Of a DNA stretch of 64,000 nucleotides, positions 24,586-39,318 are shown piece by piece. The stretch is from assembly GCA_037200965.1 (NCBI GenBank), contig JBBCGK010000001.1, positions 448,001 to 512,000 of the forward strand, read 5' to 3'. The notes below the pieces were generated by a model that saw only the letters and a program-made list of their open reading frames with translations, was not told where the DNA came from and ran no database searches. Position numbers and translations under genes: made by a program. The stretch is from a bacterium. GTDB taxonomy: Bacteria; Patescibacteriota; Minisyncoccia; Phycocordibacterales; Phycocordibacteraceae. Each line of letters opens with the position of its first letter. Within the stretch, counting starts at the first letter, position 1.

Positions 24586-24594
24586 TTAAAAGCC

Positions 24595-24903: not shown

Positions 24904-25931
24904 AAGCTACAGTCATCATCGGTGCGCAGTATGGCAGCGAAGGAAAAGGTAAGATTGCAGCTTATCTTTCAGATGAGTTCGCTCGTGCAGTTCGAACTGG
25001 CGGGCCAAACTCGGGGCATACCGTCGAGCGCAATGGCACGTTCTATCAAGTTCGAGCGGTCCCTAGTGCCTTCGTGAACCAACAATGTCGCCTCGCGATT
25101 GGTGCCGGGGCCATAATAAACACTGCCGTACTATTAGGAGAATTAACGGCATGTGGTATTGTCGAGGGGCGTTTGATAGTTGACCCTCAGGCTGTCATAA
25201 TTGATGAAGAATATCAAAATTCGGAACTAGATTTAATCAGTTCGATTTCGTCCACCGGACAAGGCGTTGGTGCAGCAATCGCAGCTAAGGTCTTACGTCG
25301 GAAAGTAACTCTCGCAAGAGACGTGCCCGAGTTGCGGCCACTGCTTGCCGATGTTGCTGGCACGATCAATTCCGAACTCCAACAAGGCCTAGCTGTAATG
25401 ATTGAGGGGTCGCAAGGATTTTTCTTGAGTTTGCATCATGGTTACTATCCGTTTGTAACAGGCAGGGAAACGACCGCAAGTTCATTTTGCGCCGAAGTAG
25501 GAATCGGTCCCAAAGATGTGGGTCAAGTGATTGGAGTTCTCCGCACCCACCCGATTAGAGTTGGCGGCCCTTCGGGACCTCTTCAAGACGAAATCGATTG
25601 GCAGACCGTCACCGCCGAGTCGGGCTACCCAACACCGCTGTTAGAGATAACTACCGTTACCAAACGAATTCGACGCGTCGGGAGGTTCTCAATGGCCGAA
25701 GCTAAACGATCTTTGATGATCAATTCGGCGACCCAAATTGCTTTAAACTTCGTCGACTACTTGGACCATGCAAACTTTGGACTTAGAAGCTACACCGCAC
25801 TGACTGCTTCAACAAAAAAATTCATCGACGCACTAGAGACACAAACGGGAGTTCCCGTTTCGCTGGTGGGCACGGGGCCCCGTAACAGCGATATGATAGA
25901 CTTACGACGCGAAAAGAACCTCCCCCATTAG
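24900..25931 (+). CDS. short-form adenylosuccinate synthetase homologue (PurA family; candidate PurZ-like)
   Basis: GAQYGSEGKGKI (P-loop). GGPNSGHTV. ISSTGQGVGAA. MIEGSQGFFLSLHHGYYPFVTGRETTAS. TTVTKRIRRVGRFSMAEAKRSL. GVPVSLVGTGPRNSDMIDLR. These align along E. coli PurA. The protein is 343 aa against 432 aa. Its start ATGA overlaps the MazG-like stop. Confidence 0.8.
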   Translation: MKATVIIGAQYGSEGKGKIAAYLSDEFARAVRTGGPNSGHTVERNGTFYQVRAVPSAFVNQQCRLAIGAGAIINTAVLLGELTACGIVEGRLIVDPQAVIIDEEYQNSELDLISSISSTGQGVGAAIAAKVLRRKVTLARDVPELRPLLADVAGTINSELQQGLAVMIEGSQGFFLSLHHGYYPFVTGRETTASSFCAEVGIGPKDVGQVIGVLRTHPIRVGGPSGPLQDEIDWQTVTAESGYPTPLLEITTVTKRIRRVGRFSMAEAKRSLMINSATQIALNFVDYLDHANFGLRSYTALTASTKKFIDALETQTGVPVSLVGTGPRNSDMIDLRREKNLPH

Positions 25932-25939
25932 ATACCAGC

Positions 25940-26692
25940 ATGAAAAACCAATACTTTGGCGACTTGAGCGACTATAAGAAGTACGGTTTGCTGCGCACAC
26001 TTTCGATTGAGGGTGAGTGCTCGCTCACTGTGTGTTGGATGCTGACGCGAGATGATCAAAGTACCGACGGGCGGCATACAACTTATTTGGCGGACGTAAG
26101 AGAATGGCGCAACCATGAGCCGTTGGTATTTGATCTACTCGCGGACGCAGTCTTCAAAAATTCCCGTAATCTCGAAATAGTTGAAAAGTCCGGACTAATA
26201 CCGAACTCAAACTACTTTCGTGAGGAAATCGGCGATGCTCCCTCCCAACGGGAAGCTTTTTTTGCCCGATTGGCAGATGAAGCCCGCAATTCTGATATTG
26301 TGTTCTTGGACCCCGACAACGGCCTTGAAGTGAAGTCAGTCCCCTATGGCTCCAAGGGAGCACATAAGTACATTTATCGGTCTGAAATCGAAAAGTTATC
26401 TCGGAATGGACTTTCAATCTTGCTGTATCAACATTTTGGTCGGAAAGAACGGTCTGAGTTTATCCGAGCTATTGCATTGAAACTCATCGATTGGCTGAAT
26501 GTGGAGGAAGTATTTTCACTTCGGACGACGCATACCGTATTTTTTCTTGTGCCGAAAGCTGCCCACAGGTCGCGAATAGATCGATCCCTCCAGGCAGTAA
26601 ATAGACAATGGGGAGATAAGATCTTTATCGAGATACACTCTAAGGAGTCTGTATCAACGGTTACAACGAAAAATCAGTTAGACCTACTCTAA
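25940..26692 (+). CDS. hypothetical protein
   Basis: 250-aa ORF that is AT-richer than the core genome. No confident motif was found. Confidence 0.5.
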   Translation: MKNQYFGDLSDYKKYGLLRTLSIEGECSLTVCWMLTRDDQSTDGRHTTYLADVREWRNHEPLVFDLLADAVFKNSRNLEIVEKSGLIPNSNYFREEIGDAPSQREAFFARLADEARNSDIVFLDPDNGLEVKSVPYGSKGAHKYIYRSEIEKLSRNGLSILLYQHFGRKERSEFIRAIALKLIDWLNVEEVFSLRTTHTVFFLVPKAAHRSRIDRSLQAVNRQWGDKIFIEIHSKESVSTVTTKNQLDLL

Positions 26693-26765
26693 GTAAGTGA
26701 GCAACATGGATATTGGAAAGGAGCCTGACTTCGCCTCGGATGCCTACTTTGATAATCCGCAACAA

Positions 26766-26801
26766 GTTGCACAACCTCCTTTTTACGAACGATCCTGCAG
26801 G
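26766..26801 (-). repeat. 36-bp array repeat, copy 2
   Basis: Exact match to the 36-mer. Confidence 0.95.
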
Positions 26802-26803
26802 AC

Positions 26804-27418
26804 GATATCCACAAATCACTGCTGCGCAGCGCGGGCCTCGCGCATCTCTCGGCGGATGAGATTGGGGACTTGAGGGACTTGGCAGCGCATGAGCTACGGA
26901 ATGAGACCGCGGACCGCGGTGGTCTCATGGCGGGATTGCGACTGCGCCTGCAACAATGCGACACACGGCTATCACGCCTTACAGACGCGCTCCTCGACCA
27001 CCTCATCGAAAAGCAGGAATACGAAGCCAAGAAGGCCGCGCTCCTGGGCGAGCGGCGCGAACTGCTAGACAAACTGGAAAGCCCGGAGGCTTCGCGTCAA
27101 CCCGCCGACGGCGTGCTGCAAGCATTGGAACTGCCAGATGTCGTGGAAACACGCTACGAAATGGCTTTGCCGGACCAACGGCGCCGCATTGCGTCTGCAA
27201 TCGCTTGGAACCTAACTGGTAGCGGAAAAGAGGCCGTACCTGAGCTGAAATCTCCGTACCGGGAGATCGTACAGTGGCGTCTTTCCAATCCGGTGCGCCG
27301 TAACGGGGAGCGATCGGAACCTGACATAAAGCTGCTATACGAAGCGCTCAAAGAAGTCTGCCGGCGAGAAGACAAGCCGCCGCAACGTCCCCAACGTCCT
27401 GATGTCTCCGGCATATAA
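26804..27418 (+). pseudogene. coiled-coil protein fragment entering at repeat 2 (possibly the C-terminal part of a recombinase-like protein)
   Basis: The reading frame is open from 26693 through repeat 2 (...CTTSFLRTILQDDIHKSLLRSAGLAHLSADEIGDLRDLAAHELRNE...). It then continues as LQQCDTRLSRLTDALLDHLIEKQEYEAKKAALLGERRELLDKLES. It has no credible own start. Confidence 0.35.
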
Positions 27419-28715
27419 GGCGACATACTTTTTCGAGAATTGTCGCGCCTTATGCCGCGTGAATGTCAGGCAGATGCTGTTCTGCATGGATGCGAGCATC
27501 AGCTACTTCGCCCGCACCAACTTCCGCAACCGAAACCAGCTCTTCGGTGTGAGGCAAGCCGACCGTCTTTCGCACCTGTACGTCATCGGCAAGACTGGCA
27601 CGGGCAAGTCCACCCTCCTTGAAACCCTCGCCCGGCAAGACCTTCGGGCCGGGCGCGGCTTCGCCCTCATAGACCCGCACGGCGATCTCGTGGAACGGAT
27701 CGCGAGGGACGCGCCGGAAGCCGTCTATCTGAACGCCCCCGATCCCTCCCAGCCCTTCGGCTATAATCCGCTCCGGAGGGTCAGGGACGACAAGATACCG
27801 CTTGCCGTCTCGGGCTTCCTCGAAACCCTCAAGAAGCTCTGGCCCGACGCGTGGGGCGTGCGCATGGAGCACGTCCTTAGGAATACGCTGTATGCGCTAT
27901 TCGAGCAGGAGGATGCGCGGCTTCCCGATATCCTCCGCCTCTATGCCGACGAGACATACCGGAAGGCGCTCGCCAAGGGGATTAGGAACGATACCGTCCG
28001 CCGCTTCTGGCTCCATGAGTTCGAGCACTTCCACTTTCGCCAGAGGGCGGACGCCGTGGCTCCGATACAAAACAAGATCGGGGCGCTCCTTGCCGACCCC
28101 ACGCTCTATCGCATCCTCGTCGAGCCAAAGGAGGATATCCGCTTCCGTGCCCTCATGGACGGCGGCGGGGTTCTTCTGGTCAATCTCTCGAAGGGCAAAC
28201 TTGGCGAGGACAGCTCGCACATCCTCGGCGCGCTCATCGTCTCGACCCTGGGCCTTGCTGCCTTTAGTCGGGCCGACAGTCCCCCAACCTCCCGCCGCCC
28301 TTTCTTCGTCTATATCGACGAATTCCAGTCCTTCACGACCCTTATGCTCGCCGACATGATGTCGGAGCTGCGGAAGTACGGCGTGGGCCTTACCTTGGCG
28401 CACCAATATATGCACCAGCTTGAACCCGAGATACGGCATGCGGTTCTGGGGAACGCTGGGACGCTCATATCATTCCGTGTTGGCCCCGAGGATGCGTCAA
28501 TCCTGGCGAAGGAGTTTCAGCCGACGTTTGACACACACGATCTCCTGAACCTGCCTAACCACCATATCTATCTGAAGCTGATGATTGATGGGGTGCCGGG
28601 CGGGGCGTTTAGTGCAAATACAGTCGATCATTCGACGCGGGGAGAGACAAAGCTCGCACCGCTACGAAGGACTTCAGACTTGAATGCGGGCGAAAGCGCG
28701 TCTGACTATGTGTGA
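27402..28715 (+). CDS. P-loop NTPase of the FtsK-HerA/TraG (DUF87 / AAA_10-like) superfamily
   Basis: Walker A SHLYVIGKTGTGKSTLLETL. Walker B RRPFFVYIDEFQSF. DPHGDL. Arginine-finger-like RKYGVGLTLAHQ. The real start may be the internal M at ~27474. Confidence 0.7.
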   Translation: MSPAYKATYFFENCRALCRVNVRQMLFCMDASISYFARTNFRNRNQLFGVRQADRLSHLYVIGKTGTGKSTLLETLARQDLRAGRGFALIDPHGDLVERIARDAPEAVYLNAPDPSQPFGYNPLRRVRDDKIPLAVSGFLETLKKLWPDAWGVRMEHVLRNTLYALFEQEDARLPDILRLYADETYRKALAKGIRNDTVRRFWLHEFEHFHFRQRADAVAPIQNKIGALLADPTLYRILVEPKEDIRFRALMDGGGVLLVNLSKGKLGEDSSHILGALIVSTLGLAAFSRADSPPTSRRPFFVYIDEFQSFTTLMLADMMSELRKYGVGLTLAHQYMHQLEPEIRHAVLGNAGTLISFRVGPEDASILAKEFQPTFDTHDLLNLPNHHIYLKLMIDGVPGGAFSANTVDHSTRGETKLAPLRRTSDLNAGESASDYV

Positions 28716-28850
28716 GCGGGATCACGTTTTTTTGCAGATGGCACGCCCGCGTGGGCTGTTTTGGTAATTGCCATAGCGTCTTGGCAACAACTGGGCGTCA
28801 GTACCTGGCTTCCCTCACAGGTTGAATATATTACAGTATAGCTCAACCAT

Positions 28851-29855
28851 ATGTTGAGTCGCCGCATGCCCGGTATTACCGAATTACTTTTGAAAATCGC
28901 GCCCAAGATCGGCGCAAAAGTGCTGATCGAGCCTGAGTGGGGCTACGTCGGGCAAATCGCCTTCCGAAGCGGTCGCAAGCGGTACTTCCGGTTCTCCAGC
29001 GTTGACGTGAATACGCTGGGCGCATCGGAAGTCGCGAAGGACAAAGATTTTGCGAACTTCTTCATGAAGCACATGGGTTATCCCATCGTGAAAGGAAAAA
29101 CGTTCTTCCGGGACGACTGGGCAGAGACAATCCGCTCCAAGCGAAAGATCACGGCCGCCTATCGATACGCGCGACGGCTGGGATTTCCGGTGATTGTGAA
29201 GCCTAACAGCGGCAGTCAGGGGAAAGCAGTATGCTTGGCTCGCACGAAGCGTCAATTCTATCGCGGAATGCGGGCGACCTTTGAGGTGGACAAAGTCGCG
29301 CTTGTCCAAATACCTGTTTCAGGAAAAGACTACCGCATCGTGGTCTTGGACCGAGAAATCATTTCGGCGTACTACAGGGTTCCGCTAAGCGTCGTCGGCA
29401 ATGGAAAAGCTTCCGTAGCGGCGTTGCTCAAGTCGAAGCAGAAAGAGTTTCGGCGCGCCGGGCGCGACACGGCGATCAGGGCCGACGATCCGCGCATAGC
29501 GGAAAAGCTCGAGCATCAGGGACTGAGCTTCGCTTCCGTTCTCCGAAAGGATCAAAAGGTTTTTCTTTTGGATAACGCCAACCTTTCGACGGGCGGCGAA
29601 TCGGAAGACGTAACGGAAAGCGTGCACAAGGAGTTCAGGAAAATCGCGGTGTCGCTTACGAGGGATATGGGACTGCGCCTGTGCGGCGTCGATCTCATGA
29701 TAGACGGGGATATCTCGGAGCCGCCCAAAACGTATTGGGTGCTTGAAGTCAATTCGGCCCCGGGGCTCGATCATTATGCGAAAAGCGGCGCGGCACAAAA
29801 CAAAATCGTCGAAAAGATGTATACGACGGTGCTTAAGAGCTTGGATCGTGACTAG
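28851..29855 (+). CDS. ATP-grasp family ligase (RimK / cyanophycin-synthetase-like fold)
   Basis: YRYARRLGFPVIVKPNSGSQGKAV. DYRIVVLDREIISAYYR. ANLSTGGESEDVT. CGVDLMIDGDI...YWVLEVNSAPGLDHY. Confidence 0.65.
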   Translation: MLSRRMPGITELLLKIAPKIGAKVLIEPEWGYVGQIAFRSGRKRYFRFSSVDVNTLGASEVAKDKDFANFFMKHMGYPIVKGKTFFRDDWAETIRSKRKITAAYRYARRLGFPVIVKPNSGSQGKAVCLARTKRQFYRGMRATFEVDKVALVQIPVSGKDYRIVVLDREIISAYYRVPLSVVGNGKASVAALLKSKQKEFRRAGRDTAIRADDPRIAEKLEHQGLSFASVLRKDQKVFLLDNANLSTGGESEDVTESVHKEFRKIAVSLTRDMGLRLCGVDLMIDGDISEPPKTYWVLEVNSAPGLDHYAKSGAAQNKIVEKMYTTVLKSLDRD

Positions 29856-29947
29856 CTCGTGTATAGTCCATACGACCGATCTTCCTGACACCAATAGGCA
29901 TCGGCCAAATCGTGATTGCTGACCAACGTTTTGCGCCGAGCGACCGC

Positions 29948-30238
29948 CTAGTCGGGATCGTAGGGATTATTGGTATCCGTGCCATTGCGCGAGGAACCAG
30001 ACGGCGAACTATACGGATCGACGCGCTTGTGACCTTGCTCGCCCGTATAGGGGTTCACGTTTGGATACGTCGAGTAATTGTTATAGGGATTGCTGTCAGG
30101 CGATGAGCGATGGTGTGGCGGAACATACGTGCCGTCCTTCCGCACATAGCCTCTGACACTGACGTCCTTCGCTGCCGCCTCAGCGCCAGTGGCCAGCAGG
30201 GTCGTGAAGACCAAAAGGGCGGCAAAAATCTTGCGCAT
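29948..30238 (-). CDS. small secreted hypothetical protein (Pro/Tyr/Asn-rich)
   Basis: MRKIFAALLVFTTLLATGAEAAAKDVSVRGYVRKDGTYVPPHH... has a signal peptide. Confidence 0.5.
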   Translation of the reverse strand: MRKIFAALLVFTTLLATGAEAAAKDVSVRGYVRKDGTYVPPHHRSSPDSNPYNNYSTYPNVNPYTGEQGHKRVDPYSSPSGSSRNGTDTNNPYDPD

Positions 30239-30348
30239 ATTAACTCCGATCAAAAATGCGGCTCGATGCTAGTTTAGTGGCTGGCGCAGGGCCAGAGGAA
30301 TAATCTTCGCAAGCGTGCGTCAGGCCACGCCCTACGGTAACGCGTCGA

Positions 30349-31314
30349 TCAGTTCGCCTCGTCGAAAATCCCATTCAGGATCGCCCCAAGCCGCACCCCT
30401 GCCGCCTGCAAGCGCTCTTCCACGATGGCGGCGCGGTCTTCCTTGTAGTTGCCGTCGGGCGCGAAGACGCGAACGGCGCCACCGGTATACGTCTCGCTGT
30501 CTTCGGAATAGCGGCAGGTGGTGCCGGAGAGCGTACAGTATCCGGTGTCGGGCGCGCGGGAGACGGTGAGCGATTCGTTGGCCCATACCATCGGATCGAG
30601 CGACGCCTTCCACGTTGCCCGCTGCTCGTCCGTGATTTCCTTTTGAAGAACATTGCCAAACGCCTCGCGCCCAGGGCCTGCTGGCTTCGTCTGCGCGATG
30701 TGGAGATCACGCATGACTTGTTCGGGAATGCAGGTGTCCCACACGGTATGGAGCGCGGTTTTGCCGTCATAGGCGCAGCCCGAGACGCCCTTCACGCCGA
30801 CGCTGTTGCCGCCGCGATCATCGGCATACGAAATGTGGAGCGGCTGGTGTATGTCGCCGAGCCAGTGCCCGAGGAATTTGAGGGCCGTGCGCTTCTTGTC
30901 GGTTGAGGCATTCGGGTCTTTGAGGATGGCGATATCGGCGGGGATGGCCGTGAAAAGGCACGTCGCCGCATTCACGCACTTGGCCTCGGGGAAGCTCGTC
31001 CAATCGCGCGGCATATTGATGAAGTGCTCCGCCCTCCGGCTGCTTTGCACATCGCCCTTCTCGTCCGGCCAGGTGCAGGCCCCGTGGAAGGTTCTCGGTA
31101 TCTCCTTGCCGTCAGCGTCCTTAAGCGGGGTTTCTGAGCGGATAAGCTTGTTGACCGCCTTGCGGGCCGTCGGCGTGAGCTCCTTGTATGCGATCTCGCA
31201 GACCGCCTCGTGGCCGGTGCCGCCGAAGGCGAGGGCACCGCTCGTTGTGAGACAAAGACTGACGAAGCCACCAGCTCCAAACAGCGCAAGAAGAACCCGC
31301 CGACGTCCACCCAT
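30349..31314 (-). CDS. S1/P1-family zinc-dependent secreted nuclease
   Basis: Signal peptide. FGGTGHEAVCEIAY. HFINMP. LKFLGHWLGDIHQPLH. LHTVWD. These are the S1-P1 nuclease Zn-ligand motifs. Confidence 0.8.
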   Translation of the reverse strand: MGGRRRVLLALFGAGGFVSLCLTTSGALAFGGTGHEAVCEIAYKELTPTARKAVNKLIRSETPLKDADGKEIPRTFHGACTWPDEKGDVQSSRRAEHFINMPRDWTSFPEAKCVNAATCLFTAIPADIAILKDPNASTDKKRTALKFLGHWLGDIHQPLHISYADDRGGNSVGVKGVSGCAYDGKTALHTVWDTCIPEQVMRDLHIAQTKPAGPGREAFGNVLQKEITDEQRATWKASLDPMVWANESLTVSRAPDTGYCTLSGTTCRYSEDSETYTGGAVRVFAPDGNYKEDRAAIVEERLQAAGVRLGAILNGIFDEAN

Positions 31315-31444
31315 GTACCCGCTCCCCCTCACTATTCGTGCCCAGGATGCGAGGACTCGCCCTAGCCGAAGAACGGATGATGCCCGGATGATTTCACCCG
31401 TCCAAGAGGAATGTGCGCCTTAGACTTCGTATCGGGCCGGGCCT

Positions 31445-32350
31445 ATGCTGCTTCTATTGGTGGGGTGTTTCTCAGGGGGTATTGGCATGACTAGCGGCAC
31501 GCGAGTTTTTCCGACGCGTTCGTATCGGGCATCATTTCCCATTCATGCGCTTCTTGCCGTCTTCGCGCTTCTCGTCGCGGGTGCGTATGGCCCGGCCGGT
31601 TCGGCCTTGGCCGCGACCAGCGCGGCGTCCTTCTGCCTTGACGCATGCCCCGAGGGCGCGCCGGCAAAGAACAAGACGGTCGTGCACCATGTCTATGCGC
31701 TCAGCTCGAACCCCGACACGAAATTCGCCGATTGGGTCGCGTACAAGATCTCCAAAGCGACCATCGGGTCGAACTGTTCGCGCAAGTGGGCGAAGGACCC
31801 GGACCTAGCGGCCGGCACCACGCTCAAGCCCGCCGATTACAAGGACATCAGTGCGGCGCTCCAGTCCGACCGGGGCCATCAAGCGCCCTTGGCAAGCCTA
31901 TGCGGCTCGAAGTTCAATGCCGAGGCGAACTATCTCTCGAACATCACCCCACAAAAGTCCGACCTCAATCAGGGCGCATGGGTGCGGCTCGAAACCGCCG
32001 AACGCAAGCTCATTACGGGCGGCACCGCGAAGACCGTGTATACCGTCACCGGGACGCTCTACGAAAAGAAGATGCCGCCGCTTCCCAAGGCGAGCGTCAA
32101 GCACAAAGTCCCTTCGGGCTATTGGAAGATCGTCGCCGTCGAGACGGACGACGGGATCGACGCCGTGGCGTTCGTCATGCCGCAGGATACACCCAAAGCC
32201 GCCGATTATTGCGAAACGCGCACCACCATCGGCGACGTTGAGACGCGCTCGGGCCTCAAGTTCTTCCTCGATCTCAACGAGACCGACCGCACGCAGCTTG
32301 AGGAGAGCGAGGCGAAGACCGGCCTCTATGAGGATTTGGGCTGCGAGTAG
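31445..32350 (+). CDS. secreted DNA/RNA non-specific endonuclease (Serratia nuclease / Endonuclease_NS family)
   Basis: N-terminal signal/TM. Active-site motif SDRGHQAPLAS (DRGH). Confidence 0.8.
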   Translation: MLLLLVGCFSGGIGMTSGTRVFPTRSYRASFPIHALLAVFALLVAGAYGPAGSALAATSAASFCLDACPEGAPAKNKTVVHHVYALSSNPDTKFADWVAYKISKATIGSNCSRKWAKDPDLAAGTTLKPADYKDISAALQSDRGHQAPLASLCGSKFNAEANYLSNITPQKSDLNQGAWVRLETAERKLITGGTAKTVYTVTGTLYEKKMPPLPKASVKHKVPSGYWKIVAVETDDGIDAVAFVMPQDTPKAADYCETRTTIGDVETRSGLKFFLDLNETDRTQLEESEAKTGLYEDLGCE

Positions 32351-32371
32351 CACGAGCGCGGGAAGATACGG

Positions 32372-32660
32372 CATGCGCAAGGCATTCATACTGACGCTGG
32401 TGGCGTTCTCCGCACTTGCGGCAACCCCACTCATCGCGCGGACCACGGATGCGGAAGTCCGGGGACAAATGATCCGCGAGTCCATCGCAAGCTATCCCGG
32501 CAACTGCCCGTGTCCGTACAGCACGATGCGAAACGGGCGCTCCTGCGGCGGGCGAAGCGCGTACAGTCGGCCCGGCGGATATGCTCCGCTGTGCTACCCG
32601 TCTGACGTTTCGGACGATATGGTGCGCGGCTATCGAAGCACGCATGGGCTCGGGAACTGA
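32372..32660 (+). CDS. small secreted Cys-rich hypothetical protein
   Basis: MRKAFILTLVAFSALAATPLIA (signal), then ...SYPGNCPCPYSTMRNGRSCGGRSAYSRPGGYAPLCYP. Confidence 0.45.
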
Positions 32661-32856
32661 TCGATCCGATTGATATCTGGCGAAGCGCGCAAACGCTCAT
32701 CTCGCTCTATGGCGATGAGGCGGAACAGTTCGCGCTTCGCCGCGCCGCTACCCTGCTCGGCGAAGGAGACCGGGAGGGCCATGCGGCAATGGCAAGCGTT
32801 GCGGAAGCGGTGAAGAAGCTGCGGCAGGAGCGGCCCGAAAGCGGCGATGCCGTCCA

Positions 32857-33264
32857 CTAGTCGGCGTCCGGCAGCTTATCGGAAGCCTCGGCAAACTCCC
32901 GCACCAGCGCGACGATGTGCTTGCGCCGGGCGGGCGACTTGACCTGCGCGAACGCTCTCGCAAGCGCCCGCCCGTCGGCGCTCGAAAGCAGCGGCATTTC
33001 TTCCGCGAACAGTGCCGAACGGGCTTTGTCGTATGCCTCGGAAACGAAGTATTCCCAGGGCAGATCAAGCACCACCATCATCCGCAACAGCGCTTCAAGC
33101 GGCAGCCGGTTGGTTCCCTTTTCATACTTCTGCATCTGTTGGAAACTAACGCCGAGGCGCTTTCCGAGAGCGAGTTGCGACAGGCCGCGCAGCGTCCGTG
33201 CGGCAAATATCTTTTGGCCGATAATCTTATTGATCTCTGACGAACTGTGCTTGCGCGGGGCCAT
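32857..33264 (-). CDS. XRE-family (Cro/C1-type) HTH transcriptional regulator
   Basis: IGQKIFAARTLRGLSQLALGKRLGVSFQQMQKYEKGTNR. Confidence 0.75.
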   Translation of the reverse strand: MAPRKHSSSEINKIIGQKIFAARTLRGLSQLALGKRLGVSFQQMQKYEKGTNRLPLEALLRMMVVLDLPWEYFVSEAYDKARSALFAEEMPLLSSADGRALARAFAQVKSPARRKHIVALVREFAEASDKLPDAD

Positions 33265-33340
33265 TCTCAATCCCGTTATACTATCGATCTCGCAAATTCT
33301 ATGGCGCGAAAACCCCATTGTCGCGCGCAATCTCAGCCTG

Positions 33341-34324
33341 TTACGCCTCCTTCATCCACTCCCGGTGCATGCGCTCCCATTCCGGGCGCGGCGCTTCGAA
33401 CTCTTCCCGGAACCACGGCATATGCTCTGGCACGAAGACCGTCTCGCGCAGGAACGCGAGCGTCGATTTGACGGCGGGTTTTGCGGCATGCACGCGGTTA
33501 TATGAGATGTAGAGCTTGCCGGGAAGGCGAAACGCAAGCGGAAGGGCGACGAGGTCCGGGTCGCCAAGCGCGTGGTAGGTAGGTGCGAGCGCGATGCCCG
33601 CGCCAAAATGCAGGCACCGCTCGAAGAAGCTCGTCTGGTTGGTGAGGATCGACACGTTCTTGACGACGTTTCCGCCCGACCATGCGGCCCAGGATGCCGT
33701 GCGCGTCTGATACTGGGCGAGATCGAGCAACCGGTGCTCGCTAAGCGCTTCGCTCGTCTGCGGCGTCCCGTGTTTTTGCAGATAGGACTTCGACGCGAAC
33801 AGGGCGTAATGGACGGTCGCGAGCGGCCTCGACACCTGATCCGAATTTCCCGGATCGTAGAAGTGGATGCGGATGTCGAAGCTGTCGCTTCGGGGCGCGG
33901 TGATGTCCTGATCGGGCGATACCTTGAGCTCAATGTTCGGATGCCGTTCGAGGAAGCTCGGCATGAACTGCGCCAGCCAGAGGCTCGCAACCCCGTCCGC
34001 GACCAGGATGCGGCAGTCGCCTTGAACGCTGCCTCCGCTGTCCTTCGCGTCCCTGCGAAGGAGCGCAATGCATTTGCGCGCCTCAAACGCGTTCGGAAGC
34101 AGACGTTCGCCGAGGTCGGTGAGCGCGCAGCCGTCGGTGCCGCGTATGAATACGCGCCCGCCGATCCACTGTTCGAAGCTGCGCAGCCGCTTGCTCACGG
34201 TTGCCTGCGTTGATCCGAGCATCGCCGCGGCCCGCTTGATGCTGCCGCCCTCGGCGATTGCGAGAAAATAGCGGAGATCGTTCCACTGCTCGGGCGAGGG
34301 GTCATCACTATTGGAAAGTACCAT
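33341..34324 (-). CDS. LysR-family transcriptional regulator
   Basis: N-terminal HTH LRYFLAIAEGGSIKRAAAMLGSTQATVSKRLRSFEQWIGGRVFIR, followed by a ~200-aa substrate-binding domain. Confidence 0.85.
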   Translation of the reverse strand: MVLSNSDDPSPEQWNDLRYFLAIAEGGSIKRAAAMLGSTQATVSKRLRSFEQWIGGRVFIRGTDGCALTDLGERLLPNAFEARKCIALLRRDAKDSGGSVQGDCRILVADGVASLWLAQFMPSFLERHPNIELKVSPDQDITAPRSDSFDIRIHFYDPGNSDQVSRPLATVHYALFASKSYLQKHGTPQTSEALSEHRLLDLAQYQTRTASWAAWSGGNVVKNVSILTNQTSFFERCLHFGAGIALAPTYHALGDPDLVALPLAFRLPGKLYISYNRVHAAKPAVKSTLAFLRETVFVPEHMPWFREEFEAPRPEWERMHREWMKEA

Positions 34325-34425
34325 CTTCCGTCCCTTGGCTTCCGGGCGGCGATAATCGAATGGCAATTTAAGCTCCGGCAACAAAAAAATGCATAAGGCG
34401 CCAGGCGGCGCCGTGGAGTAATTCC

Positions 34426-35592
34426 TTGGAAAAGAACGATTTTAGCGCGATACGAAGCGGTACCTACGGGCCCGAACATGCCGCAGCGCATCCCGATGGG
34501 GGAAGCGTATGGCTGCGTCCGGCCGGGGTCGGGGATATTCCGTTTGTGCATAGCCTGACCGTCTCGGACATCTCCGCCGAAACGGCACCGGAGGAGGTTA
34601 TTCGGGCTGTTCACGCCCGCAATCCCGATGCCCTGTGGCTTATCGAGCGCCAAAGAGGCGGGGAGCCACCGGCCCCTATCGGCTATTTCGGCTTCCTGCC
34701 GCTCACCGATCCCGGTCTCGACGCGCTCAAGGAAGGCGCGCTCGACCGCAAGAGCCCGCCGCTTGAGCTTGTGGCCGAGGGCGGCACGCGTCCGGCGGCG
34801 GTGTACGTGTGGGGCGTCGTGGCGCATCGCCTAGTGCGGGTCACCGCGCCGCTCCTCACCCTCGCGCTTTCGCCTTACATCGACGTTCCCTTCTACACCG
34901 TCTCCCAGACCGAAGAGGGGCTGCGCTCGGCCCGTAGGCGCGGCTTCGTGCCGGTCGATGCGCGGATCGGCGACCGGGGCGGGCTCGTGCTGCTGCCGCT
35001 TGGCAGCCTTCTTGCGCCGCCGCCAAGCAAAGTCGCGCAGCTCGACGTGATCGTGGCCTCGAACGCCGAGCACCTCATGATGTGCGCCTATGTTCGCGGC
35101 GTGGTGTTCGGCGCGGAGCAGCTCGCCCCCTACCGCGAGGAATTCGACGGCAACGACTTCTGCGGCATCCAGCTTCTGGGGTTCGTGAACAACGAGCCTG
35201 CGGCAGTGCTTCGCATCCGTCACTTCGCGTCATTCGCGAAATTCGAGCGGTATGCCGTGCTCGAGCGCTTCCGCAAAACGCGGATCAAGTACGAAATCCT
35301 GGAGTTCGGAATCGAGCTGTGCCGCCGCAAGGGATACACGAAGCTCTACGCGCACTCGCAGGTGCGCCTCGTCCGCTTCTATGAGCGGTTCGGCTTTCGT
35401 CTGTGCGCCGCGCAGCGTCCGCTCGTCTTCGCGGATCACGAATACGTCGAGATCGAAGCCGACCTCGCGCCGCATCCCGAGGCGATCACGACCGCCACCG
35501 ATCCCTACGTGATCATCCGACCCGAAGGGGCGTGGGACAGGCGCGGCGTTCTTGACCAGTCAGCGGCACGGCCCGCGACTAATCCCGTCTAG
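34426..35592 (+). CDS. GNAT-family N-acetyltransferase (tandem acetyltransferase-like domains)
   Basis: Two GNAT-like cores, one near 34.6-34.9 kb and a second ...CAYVRGVVFGAEQ...YTKLYAHSQVRLVRFYERFGF. Transcribed divergently from the LysR gene. Confidence 0.6.
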   Translation: MEKNDFSAIRSGTYGPEHAAAHPDGGSVWLRPAGVGDIPFVHSLTVSDISAETAPEEVIRAVHARNPDALWLIERQRGGEPPAPIGYFGFLPLTDPGLDALKEGALDRKSPPLELVAEGGTRPAAVYVWGVVAHRLVRVTAPLLTLALSPYIDVPFYTVSQTEEGLRSARRRGFVPVDARIGDRGGLVLLPLGSLLAPPPSKVAQLDVIVASNAEHLMMCAYVRGVVFGAEQLAPYREEFDGNDFCGIQLLGFVNNEPAAVLRIRHFASFAKFERYAVLERFRKTRIKYEILEFGIELCRRKGYTKLYAHSQVRLVRFYERFGFRLCAAQRPLVFADHEYVEIEADLAPHPEAITTATDPYVIIRPEGAWDRRGVLDQSAARPATNPV

Positions 35593-36098
35593 GAGTGCTC
35601 GACATGGCCGGAACGCTCGATTGCTTTGTCCGCCTTGTTGAACTCGACACCTGCGTGCGTGAGTTGGCACAGCGCAAGCGCGCGAATAATAGGATCAGCA
35701 TATCCGATCTTGATGACGTTCTCCTGGCGCTTGCTGAAGCTCGGGAAACGATCCAGGACGACGCGTATGACGAGATGGCGAGGCGGCGAGCGATAACAAC
35801 GGCGGACATAATGCAGTTCGCAAAAGATTAGCGAAAGCGCGCGGCTCTATTCAAAACGCGGCCTACGACAAGTTCGCAACTATTCGTCCGACAACACTCG
35901 CCCGATAACGGATCATTCGGCAACCAGAGGATAATGAGTATATCGCGGGAGCGAAGCATAGGAGACGATGCAGTGCATAGTCCGTCATAAATTCAACGGC
36001 GGCATCCTGATGGTAGCTGTATAACAGCGTGGTGCCGGAACTTCCCCTTGTAGCCAATACCGGGCTTCGTTACAAAGCTTCAAGGGGAGGCTATATGC

Positions 36099-37734
36099 AT
36101 GCTTAATCACACCTTTGGAGTGATCTCGCTGGGTCGTTTCCTCACTGCTATACGTCCTGCGCGTTATGCGGTCCGCTCTGCCAATCGAACACGCTTCGGC
36201 CAAGGGCTGGTCTCGGTCCGCACCCTAGTCGTCGCTGCGTGCGTTGCAATGAGTTGGCTAGCCGCATTGCCGCAAGCCGCCATCGCGAGCAGCGTCTTGA
36301 TGAGCGTGCCAGGCGAAAGCGACGTAAACTCGGCGGGTGCCTTCACATATTCACTTCCTATTGCAGTTCCGCCCGGGACTGCCCGCATCGTACCGCGACT
36401 GTCGCTTGATTATTCCAGTCAAAGCGGCAATGGCCTCCAAGGCCTCGGCTGGTCGCTTTCCGGATTGCCGGCAATAGGAAGATGCGCGCGCACGGTGGCG
36501 CAAGACGGCGTGCATGGCAGTGTCAATTACGACGGCAGCGACAAATTCTGCTTGGAAGGCCAGCGCCTAGTCGCCCTAAGCGGCGTCTATGGCGCGAACA
36601 ATACGGAATATCGTACCGAAATAGAGAGTTTCACCAAAATTATTTCATACGGAACGGCGGGTAACGGGCCAGCCTCGTTCAAAGCGTGGACCAAGTCCGG
36701 TCAAATCCTGGAATTCGGAAACACGGCGGATTCCCGTATCGAAGCGGTCGGCAAGACAACGGTGCGCGCGTGGGCCGTCAATAAGGTTTCCGATGCCAAA
36801 GGAAACTACGTCACGGTCGAATACACCGACGACCAAACTAACGGAGAGGCGTATCCGGTTCGGATTGATTATACCGGCAATCCCAACGCAACGCCGGTGG
36901 TTATGCCGTACAATTCCGTGCAGTTCACATACACAACGCGCGCAGATATCACGATTGCCTATCAGGCCGGTTCGCAGCAGAAGATCACAAAACTTCTCAC
37001 CAATATTAAGACTTATCAAGCCGCGAATTTGGTTTCCGACTATCGCCTTGCCTATCAAGCCGGCTCATCGCTCGCACATTCGCGTCTAACGTCCATCACG
37101 TTATGTGATGGGTCGGGTACGCCGGTATGCCTTGCCCCCACGACCTTTGGCTGGCAGGGTGGCAGCGGTAGCCTGCCGACAATGACCGGGACCGCATCCA
37201 CTATCATTCCGACGCAAAGCGGTGATTTCAACGTTGACGGATTAACAGACCCCTTTGTCAAAGCCCCGTATTTTGGAACTCAGAGCGGAACGTTCGTCGC
37301 GAGCGGCATGACTATAAGCTATACCGACCCCATATCGGGATTGCCGTGGTCGGGTCTAACGGCTTTCCCCAACACAATGGTCGGGTTTGTATTGGGTGAT
37401 ACCGACGGAGACGGGTATAGCGACGTCACCGCGATGCGGGGTATCGCACATGGCGCTTATGCCAGGTTGGTGGTTACGCGCAACGACCAGCTCGGAAATC
37501 TTGGTCAGATCGGCCTGATCGATCCGCTGCATGCTGGCGCCATATTCAGCGGCGACTTCAATGGAGACGCGCGCACGGACGTTTTCGTGACGGGTGTAGC
37601 TTCTTATAACAGTACGACGTATCTGAGCCTGGGGACCGGATCGTTCACCGCCATCAACATGAGTTCGGTATATGAACCCATCACGACCGCCGATTTTGAT
37701 GGTGACGGATGCACCGATTTCTTGGGATCGACTA
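36099..37734 (+). pseudogene. N-terminal portion of an SpvB-domain / FG-GAP-repeat polymorphic-toxin (Tc-toxin TcB / RHS-like) protein, cut at repeat 3
   Basis: SpvB-type N-terminus (RLSLDYSSQSGNGLQGLGWSLSGLPAIGRCARTVAQDGVHGSVNYDGSDKFCLEGQRLV). FG-GAP-like Ca-binding repeats (FNVDGLTD, GDTDGDGYSDV, GDFNGDARTDVF, ADFDGDGCTDFLGS). The homology ends exactly where the 36-mer begins. The 160 aa after the repeat are frame-read-through junk. Confidence 0.7.
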
Positions 37735-37770
37735 GTTGCACAACCTCCTTTTTACGAACGATCCTGCAGG
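37735..37770 (-). repeat. 36-bp array repeat, copy 3
   Basis: Exact match to the 36-mer. It cuts into the SpvB/FG-GAP ORF. Confidence 0.95.
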
Positions 37771-37784
37771 TTTCCGTTAATCTT

Positions 37785-39125
37785 CTAAGTCTCTTGTTGA
37801 GACGCAACACAGCCCCACGCCGCTTTTACCGAGTCATAGATAAAGCCTACCGTCAGAACCTTGGATATAACCGTCGTGGTTGGCAACGCCGTGCCTTCTG
37901 CCACGAACGACGCCCCCCAGGTAATCGCCCGGGCCGTACCGTCGTCTTTGATCCTGAAGATGAGCGTCTGGAAGTTCGTGGGTGTACCGGAGAGATTTGT
38001 CGTCATCGACGTGATCGCGGTCGCAAGAGCAGTAATCGTCACGGCGTCGCACCCATCGCTATTCACTGTAGGGGTTGCCGAAGAAACAATCGTCGTTATG
38101 CGTGGAGTATTTCTCTTATTTGCAAGAGTCTGTGTACCATTGTTAGTCACGACACTGTCAGCGTTTGTGCCTGCAACCGAGATTCTCAAATCTCCTGTTC
38201 CAACGGTAAGCACTCCTGAGGTGTGCGTTGCAACCCAGTTACCGTTACTAATGTTCCAGGTAAAACCAGTAGCACTAAAGAGATCGGCCCATCCAAGCGC
38301 GGTCGTCCCAAGAGCGGCAATATCATTCGTGACCGGGGAAAGAGCGGAGGAGGTAAGTTGTATCGTTCCTGTTCCGTTGATAGCCAGACCAAGCGTATTG
38401 GTTGTAGGAAGGTAGAGGCGATTACCGGTAGCAGTTGAAGAGGTAGGAGCAAAGCCAGCCGCAGTTGCCAGCGATGCCAACGTCAAAGCTCCGGCGTCGG
38501 TCAAGGTTGCATTGGTGGATGTTGCTTGTGCGCCGCGCGAAGTACCATCGGACCGAAGTATAGATTCATCTGTGGCAAAAGTGGCGGCAGCGGTGACTAC
38601 ATTACTCGGTATATCGCTTGTAAGAGCGACGGTACCCGTGGACGCCGGAAGGGTAATGGTGTTAGTTCCAGCGATTGCCGTAGGGACGAGGGCGATGGTA
38701 CCGGAAGTTGAACCCGAGAAGGTTACACCCTGGGTACCGGAAATGATGCCAGTGGTGTCAGCAATAAGCACTGCCGAGTTCTGGATCAGCTTACCAGTGG
38801 TAGTGTCGAAGCGGGCCACGGCGTTATCAGTTGCTGAAGCCGGGCCTACAACATAGGTAGCAAGGGAAGCAGTCGTAGGAATAACATAGCCGCTTTGGAG
38901 CGCTATAGCGATCGTTCCGGAAGTAGTGATCGGTACGCCGGATACCGTAAGTCCTGTCGGTACCGTAGCGTCAACGGATGTAACCGTACCTCCTCCTCCG
39001 GGGAGGTCTATAAGAAGCCTGTGCGTCGTCGGGTCTGCATATAGACGCACAGGCGTCTTGCCGTCAGCGCTTGAAGCTGCTATCAGCGTTGGAACATCGT
39101 TCTGGTCTCGGTAAGCATCAGCCAT
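37785..39125 (-). CDS. phage tail-fibre-like protein (Thr/Gly/Ala-rich beta-helical)
   Basis: MADAYRDQNDVPTLIAASSADGKTPVRLYADPTTHRLLIDL, then ~400 aa of T/G/S/A-rich repeats. The stop lies 14 nt from repeat 3. Confidence 0.55.
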   Translation of the reverse strand: MADAYRDQNDVPTLIAASSADGKTPVRLYADPTTHRLLIDLPGGGGTVTSVDATVPTGLTVSGVPITTSGTIAIALQSGYVIPTTASLATYVVGPASATDNAVARFDTTTGKLIQNSAVLIADTTGIISGTQGVTFSGSTSGTIALVPTAIAGTNTITLPASTGTVALTSDIPSNVVTAAATFATDESILRSDGTSRGAQATSTNATLTDAGALTLASLATAAGFAPTSSTATGNRLYLPTTNTLGLAINGTGTIQLTSSALSPVTNDIAALGTTALGWADLFSATGFTWNISNGNWVATHTSGVLTVGTGDLRISVAGTNADSVVTNNGTQTLANKRNTPRITTIVSSATPTVNSDGCDAVTITALATAITSMTTNLSGTPTNFQTLIFRIKDDGTARAITWGASFVAEGTALPTTTVISKVLTVGFIYDSVKAAWGCVASQQET

Positions 39126-39127
39126 AA

Positions 39128-39318
39128 TCAGGTACTTTGTACGAGTAATTCCCCGGCACTATTGGCGTAGAGCACCACAGGCGTCTTGCCGTCAGCGCTT
39201 GAGACAGCCATGAGTGCAGGAACAAAGTTTGCGTCCCGCAGATCGTCTACCGGCCCAAAGTCCGACCCGGTAGTGTCGTCGTCCGCCATAAGCGCATGTG
39301 TTGAAGGGTCAGCAACGA
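39128..39318 (-). pseudogene. partial tandem duplicate of the tail-fibre N-terminus, running into repeat 4
   Basis: ...FVPALMAVSSADGKTPVVLYANSAGELLVQ is paralogous to DVPTLIAASSADGKTPVRLYADPTTHRLLI of the downstream gene. The frame begins inside the 36-mer. Confidence 0.5.

Follow-up and report, generated by a model that had tools for sequence, protein, structure and literature searches.

What is a 10.9-kb stretch of foreign DNA doing between two perfect copies of a short repeat in the 0.96-Mb circular genome of a tiny symbiotic bacterium of the CPR (Patescibacteria, Paceibacteria-type) recovered from deadwood? The window that we analysed is a 64-kb stretch of this genome, and within it positions 26802-37734 are exactly the interval between two copies of GTTGCACAACCTCCTTTTTACGAACGATCCTGCAGG (26766-26801 and 37735-37770). 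A preliminary description had listed the genes and coordinates of this segment correctly, as confirmed by Pfam and by the exact repeat borders, and had seen in it either a composite of captured pieces or a derivative of an already mosaic mobile element. It made no link between the segment and the adjacent cas1-cas2 genes, which is the main point here. In our reading, the segment is quite probably one very long spacer in the CRISPR-like array of an effector-less cas1-cas2 module.

The 36-mer occurs six times in the 64-kb window, always perfect and on the plus strand, and no copy appears in 100 shuffles. Read in the sense of the cas genes (minus strand) as CCTGCAGGATCGTTCGTAAAAAGGAGGTTGTGCAAC, the copies run from the cas-proximal repeat 1 (43669-43704) through repeats 2 (40730-40765) and 3 (39319-39354) to repeats 4 and 5, the right and left borders of the segment, and to the distal repeat 6 (24550-24585), 16 nt beyond which lies the TatD start codon. 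Together they delimit five kilobase-sized inserts of unique sequence (1375-10933 nt), and their flanks are mutually unrelated. The first repeat starts 32 nt past the end of cas2; a promoter scan of the leader-like stretch between them (43705-43736, minus strand) detected none. The locus thus has what is expected of CRISPR-Cas on this count, namely near-identical direct repeats of ~23-55 bp beside cas genes.

The segment, 10933 nt long, is the second of the five inserts (spacer 2). Spacer 1 (24586-26765, 2180 nt), with a truncated MazG-like gene, a PurA-like gene and a 250-aa ORF, is identical over 2180/2180 nt to positions 9687-11866 of locus L006 (JBBCBH010010880.1, 4.0 Mb, same co-assembly). 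There the sequence is continuous within a mobile-element island, both spacer ends fall inside genes and complete genes span them, so the transfer went from donor to array. Spacer 1, the one with the identical donor, is the farthest from cas2; were it the oldest entry, this identity would not be expected. Spacer 3 (37771-39318, 1548 nt) encodes a 446-aa phage-type protein (phrog_3030, E=1e-22). Spacer 4 (39355-40729, 1375 nt) holds a 173-aa ORF and a weakly phosphoribosyltransferase-like ORF of 218 aa; one frame there is open for 222 codons, as far as the boundary. Spacer 5 (40766-43668, 2903 nt) contains ORFs of 523 and 154 aa and a patatin gene cut at its 3' side by the repeat, the match covering profile positions 2-118 of 191; its tetranucleotide score of +0.23 is alphaproteobacterium-like. 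True spacer ends in the array mostly cut genes, and a foreign source is seen for spacers 1 (island), 2 (alphaproteobacterial) and 3 (phage protein). The spacers are neither short nor uniform, measuring 1375-10933 nt here and 670-4242 nt in the relatives. Nucleases and nucleotide-metabolism genes are among the inserts.

The cas1 gene (44030-45085, minus strand) encodes a 351-aa protein that matches PF01867 (E=1e-63) and reaches 221.5 bits with TIGR00287, for a cutoff of 71.7; no subtype model is passed. In an alignment of 35 family members, the catalytic residues E181, H241, D253 and E256 are invariant, and the Glu/His/Asp set of a CRISPR-Cas integrase is in place. The nearest solved structures are 7cr6 and 4n06; the match with the CRISPR Cas1 7cr6 (E=2e-31) is stronger than that with the casposase 6opm (E=8e-20). 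The putative cas2 gene (43737-44033, minus strand) overlaps the cas1 stop and encodes a divergent protein of 98 aa, whose match with PF09827 (E=3e-3, 18 bits) lies below the gathering score of 23.8. PF09827 is nonetheless the best Pfam match in 5/5 family members (best E=1e-4), PADLOC Cas2b recognizes the protein with E=9e-7, and the top three matches of a PDB profile search are all Cas2. There is no effector cas gene in the 64-kb window, no Cas4 or Cas6 gene in the window or in the related loci, and, in five related loci, no other cas gene at a distance of up to 10 kb from cas1; window and related loci alike have no interference module.

The layout of cas1, cas2 and array is repeated in three related genomes with homologous 37-nt repeats, and no effector genes were seen in these loci. 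L002, whose Cas1 is 85% identical (88% over a shorter gene call), has 5 repeats with spacers of 1.3-2.4 kb; L094 (63%) has spacers of 1.3 and 0.67 kb, and L096 (62%) a single spacer of 4.2 kb. In L003, as in these three, cas2 is adjoined by homologous repeats. The repeat co-varies with Cas1, and the adjacency of cas1 and cas2 recurs in four independent genomes. Leader-like spacing of 32-33 nt is also found in L002 and L003. Directly 5' of the first repeat, 4/5 loci have the motif G(G/A)CT and L002 has TGTC; in the five loci the motif is absent before all other repeats. The cas1-cas2-repeat unit occupies a different genomic site in every genome, in L003 with a duplication of 17-18 nt on its flanks.

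It might be asked if the array is a chimeric long-read contig or a set of adapter-like joins between unrelated pieces of DNA. The deposited contig JBBCBH010010897.1 ends inside the segment, at window position 32699, and the sequence of spacer 1 recurs unchanged in another contig of the co-assembly. Against this, the gene order between the end of spacer 1 and the XRE gene is reproduced in a 6.6-kb contig of a separate assembly (GCA_015689235.1), which crosses the repeat as well as the 32699/32700 junction, the contig wrap point. An Illumina MAG contig (GCA_015655515.1) matches 33291-45592, 12.3 kb with four repeats, at 99.94%, and in two runs Logan contigs built from short reads terminate within the repeat. 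The six repeats all point the same way and the architecture is found in three unrelated assemblies as well. The array is not an assembly artefact; chimeric joins are an extremely improbable origin for it.

Both ends of the segment are intragenic and foreign DNA abuts the repeats directly. At the left end, in a frame that is open from and through the repeat, lie the C-terminal 204 codons of a large serine recombinase (26802-27418, plus strand). This fragment is 63% identical in amino acids to the C-terminus of a 516-aa Resolvase/Recombinase in L006 and matches positions 458-549 of 651 in the phrog_95 integrase. The next gene codes for a TrwB/TraD/HerA-like ATPase of the TrwB/DUF87 type (27402-28715, plus strand; Pfam); its closest relatives are in L099 (80%) and in Rhizomicrobium, Proteobacteria and Parvibaculum MAGs (68-76%). 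It is followed by a RimK-type ATP-grasp ligase (28851-29855, plus strand; Pfam); the homologue closest to it (54%) makes up the C-terminal half of a 582-aa F420_ligase-ATP-grasp protein encoded on a low-GC (0.43), non-alphaproteobacterial-looking contig.

Two nuclease genes come next: an S1/P1 nuclease (30349-31332, minus strand; PF02265, E=4e-48) with an N-terminal signal-like segment and a best plasmid match in Bradyrhizobium (34%), and a DNA/RNA non-specific endonuclease, Endonuclease_NS (31445-32350, plus strand; PF01223, E=9e-40). By eye, both N-termini look hydrophobic, and the second nuclease has a putative lipobox-like LVGC motif. The block at 32857-35831 consists of an XRE HTH gene (32857-33330, minus strand), a LysR gene (33341-34384, minus strand), a divergent GNAT gene (34426-35592, plus strand), all three assigned by Pfam, and a small ORF on the plus strand. 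Alphaproteobacterial relatives of the GNAT protein are 56-71% identical, the named ones belonging to Rhizomicrobium sp. and Alphaproteobacteria; the best plasmid matches of LysR, GNAT and S1/P1 are all in Alphaproteobacteria. At the right end, a gene for an RHS-type toxin (36099-37734, plus strand; Pfam SpvB, FG-GAP) is cut exactly at the repeat, through which its ORF reads on as nonsense. The remaining fragment is 47% identical in amino acids to the N-terminus of a 2033-aa SpvB/RHS protein in L099. Defence cargo, of which the ATPase and ATP-grasp genes had seemed reminiscent, is not established.

A recombinase fragment together with a coupling-protein-like ATPase is typical of integrated elements, and the changing site of the cas1-cas2-repeat unit, with the duplication in L003, speaks for mobility of the locus. 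Self-insertion of a mobile element, or of part of one, by its serine recombinase, or placement of the inserts by a site-specific recombinase acting on the 36-mer in an integron- or Xer-like manner, would make cas1-cas2 incidental. We hold this to be improbable: the recombinase gene breaks off precisely where the repeat begins and has lost the catalytic N-terminal two thirds, and at its other end the segment interrupts a toxin gene. The segment has no att-like or inverted terminal sequences, and besides Cas1 no intact recombinase lies in or beside the array; neither the intact recombinase gene nor the two ends of an integrative element are found. Spacer 1, moreover, is an arbitrary 2180-nt excerpt of its donor island with both ends intragenic, and the cas1-cas2 adjacency and the co-variation of repeat and Cas1 hold in four independent genomes.

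The GC content of the segment is 0.595 for the recombinase and ATPase, 0.545 for the ATP-grasp gene, the lowest of the blocks, 0.623 for 30.3-35.9 kb (500-nt maximum 0.688) and 0.554 for SpvB. The GC swing noted earlier is real but smaller than had been estimated, the ATP-grasp block having been put at ~0.50, and it does not exceed that of the host. Over 500 nt, the segment ranges from 0.524 to 0.688 (sd 0.039) and the flanking host genes from 0.462 to 0.674 (sd 0.043), so that GC mosaicism alone is not beyond background. What sets the segment apart from the host is its tetranucleotide usage and the phylogeny of its genes. In an alphaproteobacterium-versus-host tetranucleotide contrast, all five sub-blocks score between +0.03 and +0.13, compared with -0.15 +/- 0.06 for host chunks; scores above zero are reached by 0/34 host chunks of 2 kb, 0/22 of 3 kb and 2/47 of 1.5 kb (maximum 0.046). 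As to the best matches of single genes, those of the ATPase and GNAT are alphaproteobacterial and that of the ATP-grasp ligase is on the 0.43-GC contig described above.

Could several independently captured spacers of ~1-3 kb, the ordinary size for this system, have fused after the intervening repeats were lost? In length the segment exceeds the other 11 spacers seen in the array and its relatives by a factor of 2.5 to 16, its blocks differ in GC, and the nearest relative of the ATP-grasp block is not that of the ATPase or the LysR-GNAT block. Such a composite, proposed in the preliminary description, is rather unlikely all the same. The segment contains no degenerate copy of the 36-mer, the best match having 17/36 mismatches as in shuffled sequence, and recombination between direct repeats removes a spacer with its repeat instead of fusing neighbours. 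The non-host tetranucleotide tendency is common to every sub-block, and all block boundaries lie between intact genes, unlike most true spacer ends in the array.

Related genes are also found together elsewhere. In the alphaproteobacterial contig L099, a resolvase, an SpvB/RHS toxin, the ATPase, LysR, GNAT and XRE occur inside 12 kb (LysR 51% and GNAT 63% identical to those of the segment), in a different order and without ATP-grasp and nuclease genes. L098, a 4.0-Mb co-assembled genome, has XRE, LysR, GNAT and the small ORF in the order and orientation of the segment (LysR 46%, GNAT 58%), and L006 has the recombinase followed by the ATPase (63% and 75%). No near-identical donor for the 10.9-kb segment was found; we infer its contiguity in the donor from these related, rearranged loci.

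The segment carries alphaproteobacterial, Rhizomicrobium-like genes and is of foreign origin. Rather than a composite, it most likely represents a single piece captured from a donor region that was mosaic beforehand. The idea of a mosaic mobile element thereby survives in modified form, upheld by the recombinase-ATPase pair and by the gene neighbourhoods in L099 and L098; some of the captured DNA is probably not cargo and stems from the donor chromosome adjoining the element. The make-up of the donor region accounts for the uneven composition of the segment, which is unremarkable in itself.

If the segment is indeed a spacer, the Cas1-Cas2 integrase would attach a double-stranded DNA fragment by its two 3' ends to both borders of the cas2-proximal repeat, and gap repair would then double the 36 bp. 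Fragment length would go unmeasured by this Cas1-Cas2 family, and kilobase pieces would be stored. The piece stored here would have been cut at arbitrary positions from a Rhizomicrobium-like alphaproteobacterial genome and would have entered as a single fragment. It would comprise the end of a serine-recombinase/TrwB-ATPase integrated element, the accessory ATP-grasp and nuclease genes, the chromosomal XRE-LysR-GNAT block and the start of the SpvB/RHS toxin gene, a donor region from which the uneven composition may be inherited.

More tentatively, a clade of Patescibacteria may use a ruler-less, effector-less Cas1-Cas2 to archive kilobase DNA of neighbouring or host bacteria and of mobile elements; we would call this possible, with the odds against it. 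Arrays beside intact cas1-cas2 genes would then store foreign excerpts of 0.7-11 kb in several Patescibacteria, and in nature Cas1-Cas2 would work as an integrase for DNA capture in general. The archive could serve a genome-reduced symbiont as a platform for gene acquisition, kilobase arrays being a possible route of gene pick-up, or as a memory working through long transcripts or homology and without crRNA-guided nucleases. Its spacers would directly name the host of the symbiont, here a Rhizomicrobium-like 4.0-Mb bacterium, and donor-identical inserts may in this way show the partner organism of an uncultivated ultra-small bacterium. We found no published description of kilobase spacers; as standard CRISPR finders limit spacer length, they would miss the whole class. 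As a living analogue, the system could also represent the step that links casposon integration with CRISPR adaptation, and would offer a testable model for the relation of adaptation modules to casposons.

Among known systems, integrons likewise have tandem kilobase gene-bearing units, a short recurring site and an adjacent integrase gene, and the array could similarly give its host access to foreign genes. Here, however, the integrase is Cas1, and no tyrosine recombinase is found within the array or next to it; the sites are identical 36-mers and not variable, imperfectly palindromic attC; and the units are multi-gene, on both strands and with intragenic ends, unlike promoterless single-ORF cassettes. 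With the serine-recombinase/TrwB-type ATPase elements of Alphaproteobacteria (a search of species-representative genomes confirmed homologues of the ATPase in 568 candidate stretches) the segment shares the order and orientation of recombinase and ATPase, as in L006, and the L099 element adjoins LysR-GNAT and carries an SpvB/RHS toxin. In contrast to them, the segment lacks a relaxase, att sites and the other end, and its recombinase is truncated; being incomplete, it is a dead excerpt and not an active element.

Casposons, too, tie a Cas1-family integrase to kilobase DNA insertion, and the cas1-cas2-repeat unit seems to have changed its genomic site, with its flanking duplication in L003. They differ in that here no family B polymerase gene lies beside cas1, the repeats are direct and not terminal inverted ones, a putative Cas2 is present, unrelated foreign pieces are stacked between the repeats, and Cas1 is nearer to CRISPR Cas1 than to the casposase. 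What defines CRISPR adaptation is the use by an effector of short spacers of measured length, usually of roughly 25-70 bp. The inserts considered here vary ~16-fold in length (0.67-10.9 kb), which argues for the absence of a molecular ruler; effector, Cas4 and Cas6 are missing from the 64 kb and the related loci, and the leader is only ~32 nt. Like a CRISPR array, on the other hand, the locus combines a Cas1 with intact catalytic residues and its putative Cas2-like partner with identical direct repeats of 36 bp, which follow the cas operon immediately and have unique inserts between them; at least one insert reproduces foreign mobile-element DNA exactly, and the repeat co-varies with Cas1.

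The segment at 26802-37734 (10,933 nt) is bounded exactly by two perfect copies of a 36-mer, GTTGCACAACCTCCTTTTTACGAACGATCCTGCAGG. Six such perfect copies lie in the window, all on the + strand (24550, 26766, 37735, 39319, 40730 and 43669), against none in 100 shuffles, and no further copy is found there when up to 12 mismatches are allowed. They delimit five intervals of 2180, 10933, 1548, 1375 and 2903 nt, hereafter spacers 1 to 5, counted from the cas-distal side; the segment is spacer 2. The sequences flanking the six copies are unrelated to one another. The exact 36-mer has no match in viral, species-representative genome or JGI metagenome collections, and the repeat is specific to this organism.

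A cas1-cas2 operon lies on the minus strand, 32 nt past the last repeat (the 43669 copy). The cas1 gene (44030-45085, minus strand) matches PF01867 with E=1e-63, and its product passes the NCBI equivalog TIGR00287 (221.5 bits, cutoff 71.7) and none of the subtype models. The catalytic Glu, His, Asp and Glu are invariant across a 35-member alignment; the closest solved structures are CRISPR Cas1 proteins, a casposase being a weaker match. The 98-aa protein encoded downstream of cas1 reads as a divergent Cas2: each of the five family members examined has PF09827 as its best Pfam match, PADLOC Cas2 models match at 9e-7, and the three best PDB profile matches are Cas2. Its structure, predicted from the single sequence, was discarded (pLDDT 48). 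The 64-kb window contains no other cas genes. Named relatives of Cas1 all belong to Paceibacterota, Parcubacteria, Nomurabacteria or the "Patescibacteria group"; a search of IMG/VR, with the single sequence or a 35-sequence profile, returned no match. The Cas1 clade counts 481 proteins at E<=1e-10.

Genes for MetRS, a transporter, a ProRS-like protein and IleRS follow beyond cas1, and those for TatD, S6, SSB, EF-P, RecA and FtsK lie beyond the far, cas-distal repeat. IleRS (52714-56085, minus strand) carries a histidine-phosphatase domain, His_Phos_1, inserted within the synthetase core at residues 502-674. The 23S rRNA gene (1882-6226, minus strand) is 4.3 kb long against 2.9 kb for the model and is interrupted by a group I intron (2304-2520); a 5S gene (753-860) lies downstream of it. 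No tRNA genes were found in the 64-kb window. A palindrome, TTGACACTAGGTCAA, at 45106-45120 (minus strand), about 20 nt upstream of the cas1 start codon, is conserved in form as TTGACTATCGGTCAA (about 9761-9775) in L002, a locus with a related Cas1; it may be an operator or promoter, and the scan for consensus promoters and terminators around cas1-cas2 reported nothing.

The sequence derives from a PacBio HiFi co-assembly of four deadwood samples, contig JBBCBH010010897.1, 960,259 bp (PMC11613949). Its host is placed, by inference, in Patescibacteria/Paceibacteria on the named Cas1 relatives, the genome size of 0.96 Mb and the intron in the 23S rRNA. The deposited contig stops inside the segment, at 32699/32700, and the window is therefore taken to run across the closing point of a circular contig. 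An array created by the assembly is excluded, as independent assemblies show the same structure. In GCA_015689235.1, a 6.6-kb contig reproduces the gene order between the end of spacer 1 and the XRE gene, spans both repeat and wrap point, and confirms continuity at 32699/32700. An Illumina MAG contig of GCA_015655515.1 matches 33291-45592 at 99.94% and includes all four repeats; of its seven differences, three fall at the contig end, two in cas1 and one each in spacers 2 and 5. In two runs, short-read contigs terminate in the repeat.

Every gene that the preliminary description had named in the segment was confirmed by Pfam. They encode a TrwB/TraD/HerA-like ATPase (27402-28715), a RimK-type ATP-grasp protein (28851-29855), an S1/P1 nuclease (30349-31332, minus strand), an Endonuclease_NS (31445-32350), an XRE regulator (32857-33330, minus strand), a LysR regulator (33341-34384, minus strand), a GNAT acetyltransferase (34426-35592) divergent from LysR, and an SpvB/FG-GAP protein starting at 36099. 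The ends of the segment are arbitrary with respect to these genes. On the left, the segment opens with 204 codons whose frame continues back through the repeat without a stop; these codons share 63% identity with the C-terminus of a 516-aa Resolvase/Recombinase in L006, a stretch of a 4.0-Mb contig from the same co-assembly (JBBCBH010010880.1). The neighbour of that recombinase is 75% identical to the segment's ATPase: the same pair occurs in the same order. On the right, the last gene encodes an SpvB/FG-GAP toxin and is cut off precisely at the repeat, after its first 545 codons.

The segment is of foreign origin, and its relatives point to Alphaproteobacteria. The best species-genome relatives of the ATPase are in a Proteobacteria MAG (76%), Rhizomicrobium spp. 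(68-76%), Parvibaculum (72%) and Caulobacteraceae (70%). Relatives of GNAT reach 71%, 63% and 60%, the last on the same 4.0-Mb contig, with named matches to Rhizomicrobium sp. and Alphaproteobacteria. L098, from that contig, carries XRE(-), LysR(-), GNAT(+) and a small ORF(+) in the order and orientation of the segment. L099 is a 47-kb metagenome contig (0.65 GC) that holds within 12 kb a resolvase, a 2033-aa SpvB/FG-GAP/RHS protein (47% to the segment's SpvB fragment), an ATPase (80%), LysR (51%), GNAT (63%) and XRE, in a cluster adjoining XerC and PriA. One alphaproteobacterial neighbourhood therefore unites gene types from the left, the centre and the right of the segment; L099 has them in another order and lacks the ATP-grasp and nuclease genes. 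The ATP-grasp protein has its best homologue (54%) on a 0.43-GC contig, in the C-terminal half of a 582-aa F420_ligase-ATP-grasp protein, and this block is probably an acquired accessory gene already present in the donor. For LysR, GNAT and S1/P1, the best plasmid matches, in Aminobacter, Aureimonas and Bradyrhizobium, reach only 31-38%. Megablast of the segment against plasmids and phages gave no match, none of its other genes occurs at the 80 ATPase loci recovered from species genomes, and relatives of the S1/P1 nuclease in JGI metagenomes reach only 36-39%. Homologues of the ATPase (44-59%) are also found in Komeilibacteria, Kerfeldbacteria and Paceibacterota (L033, L078, L082, L084, L088-L091), with neither cas1 nor family repeats nearby; the ATPase element family may thus also be resident in Patescibacteria.

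The same segment had been described as compositionally mosaic, either a composite of several captured pieces or a derivative of an already mosaic mobile element. Its GC content does swing (0.595, 0.545, 0.623 and 0.554 by block), though the ATP-grasp block, put at about 50%, is less extreme than that, and the swing does not exceed the background: over 500 nt, the segment has an s.d. of 0.039 (range 0.524-0.688) and the flanking host genes 0.043 (0.462-0.674). We rejected GC variability as a criterion of mosaicism, the host flanks being equally variable. A tetranucleotide score was defined as similarity to named alphaproteobacterial loci against similarity to host flanks. All five sub-blocks score +0.03 to +0.13, compared with -0.15 ± 0.06 for length-matched host chunks and +0.17 ± 0.07 for alphaproteobacterial chunks; no host chunk rises above 0 at 2 and 3 kb, and 2 of 47 do at 1.5 kb (maximum 0.046). 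The whole segment is therefore compositionally non-host, and its parts are not separable from one another on this measure. A fusion of several spacers is disfavoured by this uniform tendency, by the L098/L099 synteny, by the mechanism of repeat recombination and by the absence of repeat remnants: the best internal match to the 36-mer has 17/36 mismatches, the same as in shuffles. Gene by gene, an alphaproteobacterial affinity holds for the ATPase and GNAT, and the ATP-grasp gene differs. The second proposal fits better, in a modified form, and the mosaic is real but ordinary, its uneven make-up being inherited from the donor region. As no near-identical donor was found, we infer that the segment is a single excerpt of a Rhizomicrobium-like genome. 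Such an excerpt would run from the last part of an integrated element through accessory genes and a chromosomal regulator-acetyltransferase block into the beginning of a toxin gene.

For spacer 1 (24586-26765), a donor is at hand: it is identical over 2180/2180 nt to positions 9687-11866 of L006. The donor site is an island with a tyrosine integrase, a 695-aa TrwB-like protein, AlpA and a Replic_Relax protein, and the 4.0-Mb genome appears alphaproteobacterial by homology to named MAG loci. On its left, the spacer breaks off within a 297-aa MazG-like gene, leaving only 102 of the codons in the array; on its right, it ends 60 nt into a P450 gene. Gene boundaries are ignored, and since both ends lie inside L006 genes, the transfer went from the 4.0-Mb genome to the array. 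Over 21 kb, the donor region itself varies from 0.47 to 0.66 GC per kb.

The genes of spacer 1 (24595-26692) encode a truncated MazG/PRA-PH-like protein, a short PurA-like protein and a 250-aa ORF of no assigned family. Against NF003295 the PurA-like gene reaches 361.8 bits, narrowly missing the cutoff of 368; against the PurZ model, whose cutoff is 300, it reaches 219 bits. At the donor site (L006 9111-11793) the three genes form a low-GC insert (0.47-0.50) between integrase and P450; they may constitute a nucleotide-modification or defence module.

The layout is conserved together with Cas1. L002 (Cas1 85%, or 88% over a shorter gene call) has five 37-nt repeats, CCTGCACACCACCTTCGGAAAAAGGATATTGTGCAAC, the first starting 32 nt from cas2, and spacers of 1332, 1379, 1340 and 2377 nt; L094 (63%) has three repeats and spacers of 1290 and 670 nt; L096 (62%) has two repeats around one 4242-nt spacer; and L003-L005 (82%) have one repeat and no spacer. 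No effector gene lies within 10 kb in any of these loci. A mobile element that inserted itself, or placement of the segment by an integron- or Xer-like recombinase, is disfavoured: the repeat truncates the recombinase gene, there is no second recombinase, and cas1-cas2 recurs next to repeats in four genomes.

The chromosomal site of the cas1-cas2-repeat unit is different in each genome examined, which suggests that the unit is mobile. In L096 (9373-16441) the whole cas1-cas2-repeat-spacer-repeat unit sits within the ribosomal-protein operon, between rplE (L5) and rpsH (S8). In L003, as in L004 and L005, the 17-18 nt after the single repeat that follows cas2 are GGGAGTATGAGCGGGAT, duplicated 14 nt upstream of the cas1 start (L003 9970-9986 and 11420-11436); the upstream copy is preceded by a degenerate repeat end (GTTTTGCCCG vs GTTGTGCAAC). 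The arrangement resembles a target duplication flanking the unit. Recombination or repair genes occur within 10 kb of cas1-cas2 in 5/6 loci (SSB, RecA and TatD at 18353-24533 of the window; RuvA in L002; RuvB, RuvC and PolA in L003; PolA in L094; ComEC, RecJ and RNase H at the P0084 locus), a nearness that may be chance in such small genomes.

Read in the cas sense, the window repeat is CCTGCAGGATCGTTCGTAAAAAGGAGGTTGTGCAAC, homologous to the repeats of the related loci. TGCA is invariant near both ends and an AAAAGGA..TTGTGCA stretch is conserved. Folding of the cas-sense strand in this genome gives -10.4 kcal/mol (z = -2.5); a crRNA hairpin was dropped, as the five family repeats show no covariation support for an RNA structure, only the invariant terminal TGCA...TGCA forming pairs. 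G(G/A)CT is conserved just before the first repeat in 4/5 loci, L002 having TGTC there; as it is confined to the first repeat, the cas2-proximal end is the likely leader side. Spacer termini share no common motif; the search for a PAM was limited to the one known protospacer, that of spacer 1. By analogy with established Cas1-Cas2 chemistry, the integrase would use the 3' ends of a DNA fragment to attack the cas2-proximal repeat at its two borders, and the repeat would then be duplicated on repair; nothing would limit fragment length in this family.

So far, the sources have been mobile elements and the DNA around them: an integrase/relaxase island for spacer 1, the start of a recombinase-ATPase element for spacer 2, a phage protein (phrog_3030) in spacer 3, and an integrase fragment in spacer 4 of L002. 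That L002 spacer (15374-17750) belongs to a second Patescibacteria array; the fragment comes from a tyrosine integrase and shares 50-62% identity with integrases located next to these same ATPase-bearing elements, in Rhizomicrobium and further alphaproteobacterial loci, and 46% with the one adjoining the spacer-1 donor site; the two arrays have sampled one element family. Long reading frames are open at many spacer borders in the window array and its relatives, and the patatin gene of spacer 5 is cut, its match spanning only profile positions 2-118 of 191. Genes in spacers 3-5 are in sense with the cas operon, those in spacer 1 and most of L002 and L096 antisense. With orientation thus mixed, a simple "expression platform" or "antisense" rule was dropped.

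What makes the locus remarkable is that an effector-less Cas1-Cas2 array in a Patescibacteria genome contains a spacer of 10.9 kb, and that another of its spacers is identical to part of a co-occurring 4.0-Mb genome. In the full-text literature open to search, with many subscription papers outside it, we found no description of kilobase or giant spacers, of stand-alone Cas1-Cas2 or of a Patescibacteria Cas1. Arrays with kilobase spacers would have escaped notice because standard CRISPR finders limit the length of spacers. Unlike a casposon, the locus has neither a polymerase nor inverted repeats; unlike an integron, it has neither IntI nor attC, and its units cut genes. It departs from CRISPR in spacer length and uniformity and in having no effector, but shares with it Cas1, repeats and foreign spacers, and resembles CRISPR adaptation in the bias of its sources towards mobile elements, seen both in the window array and in L002.
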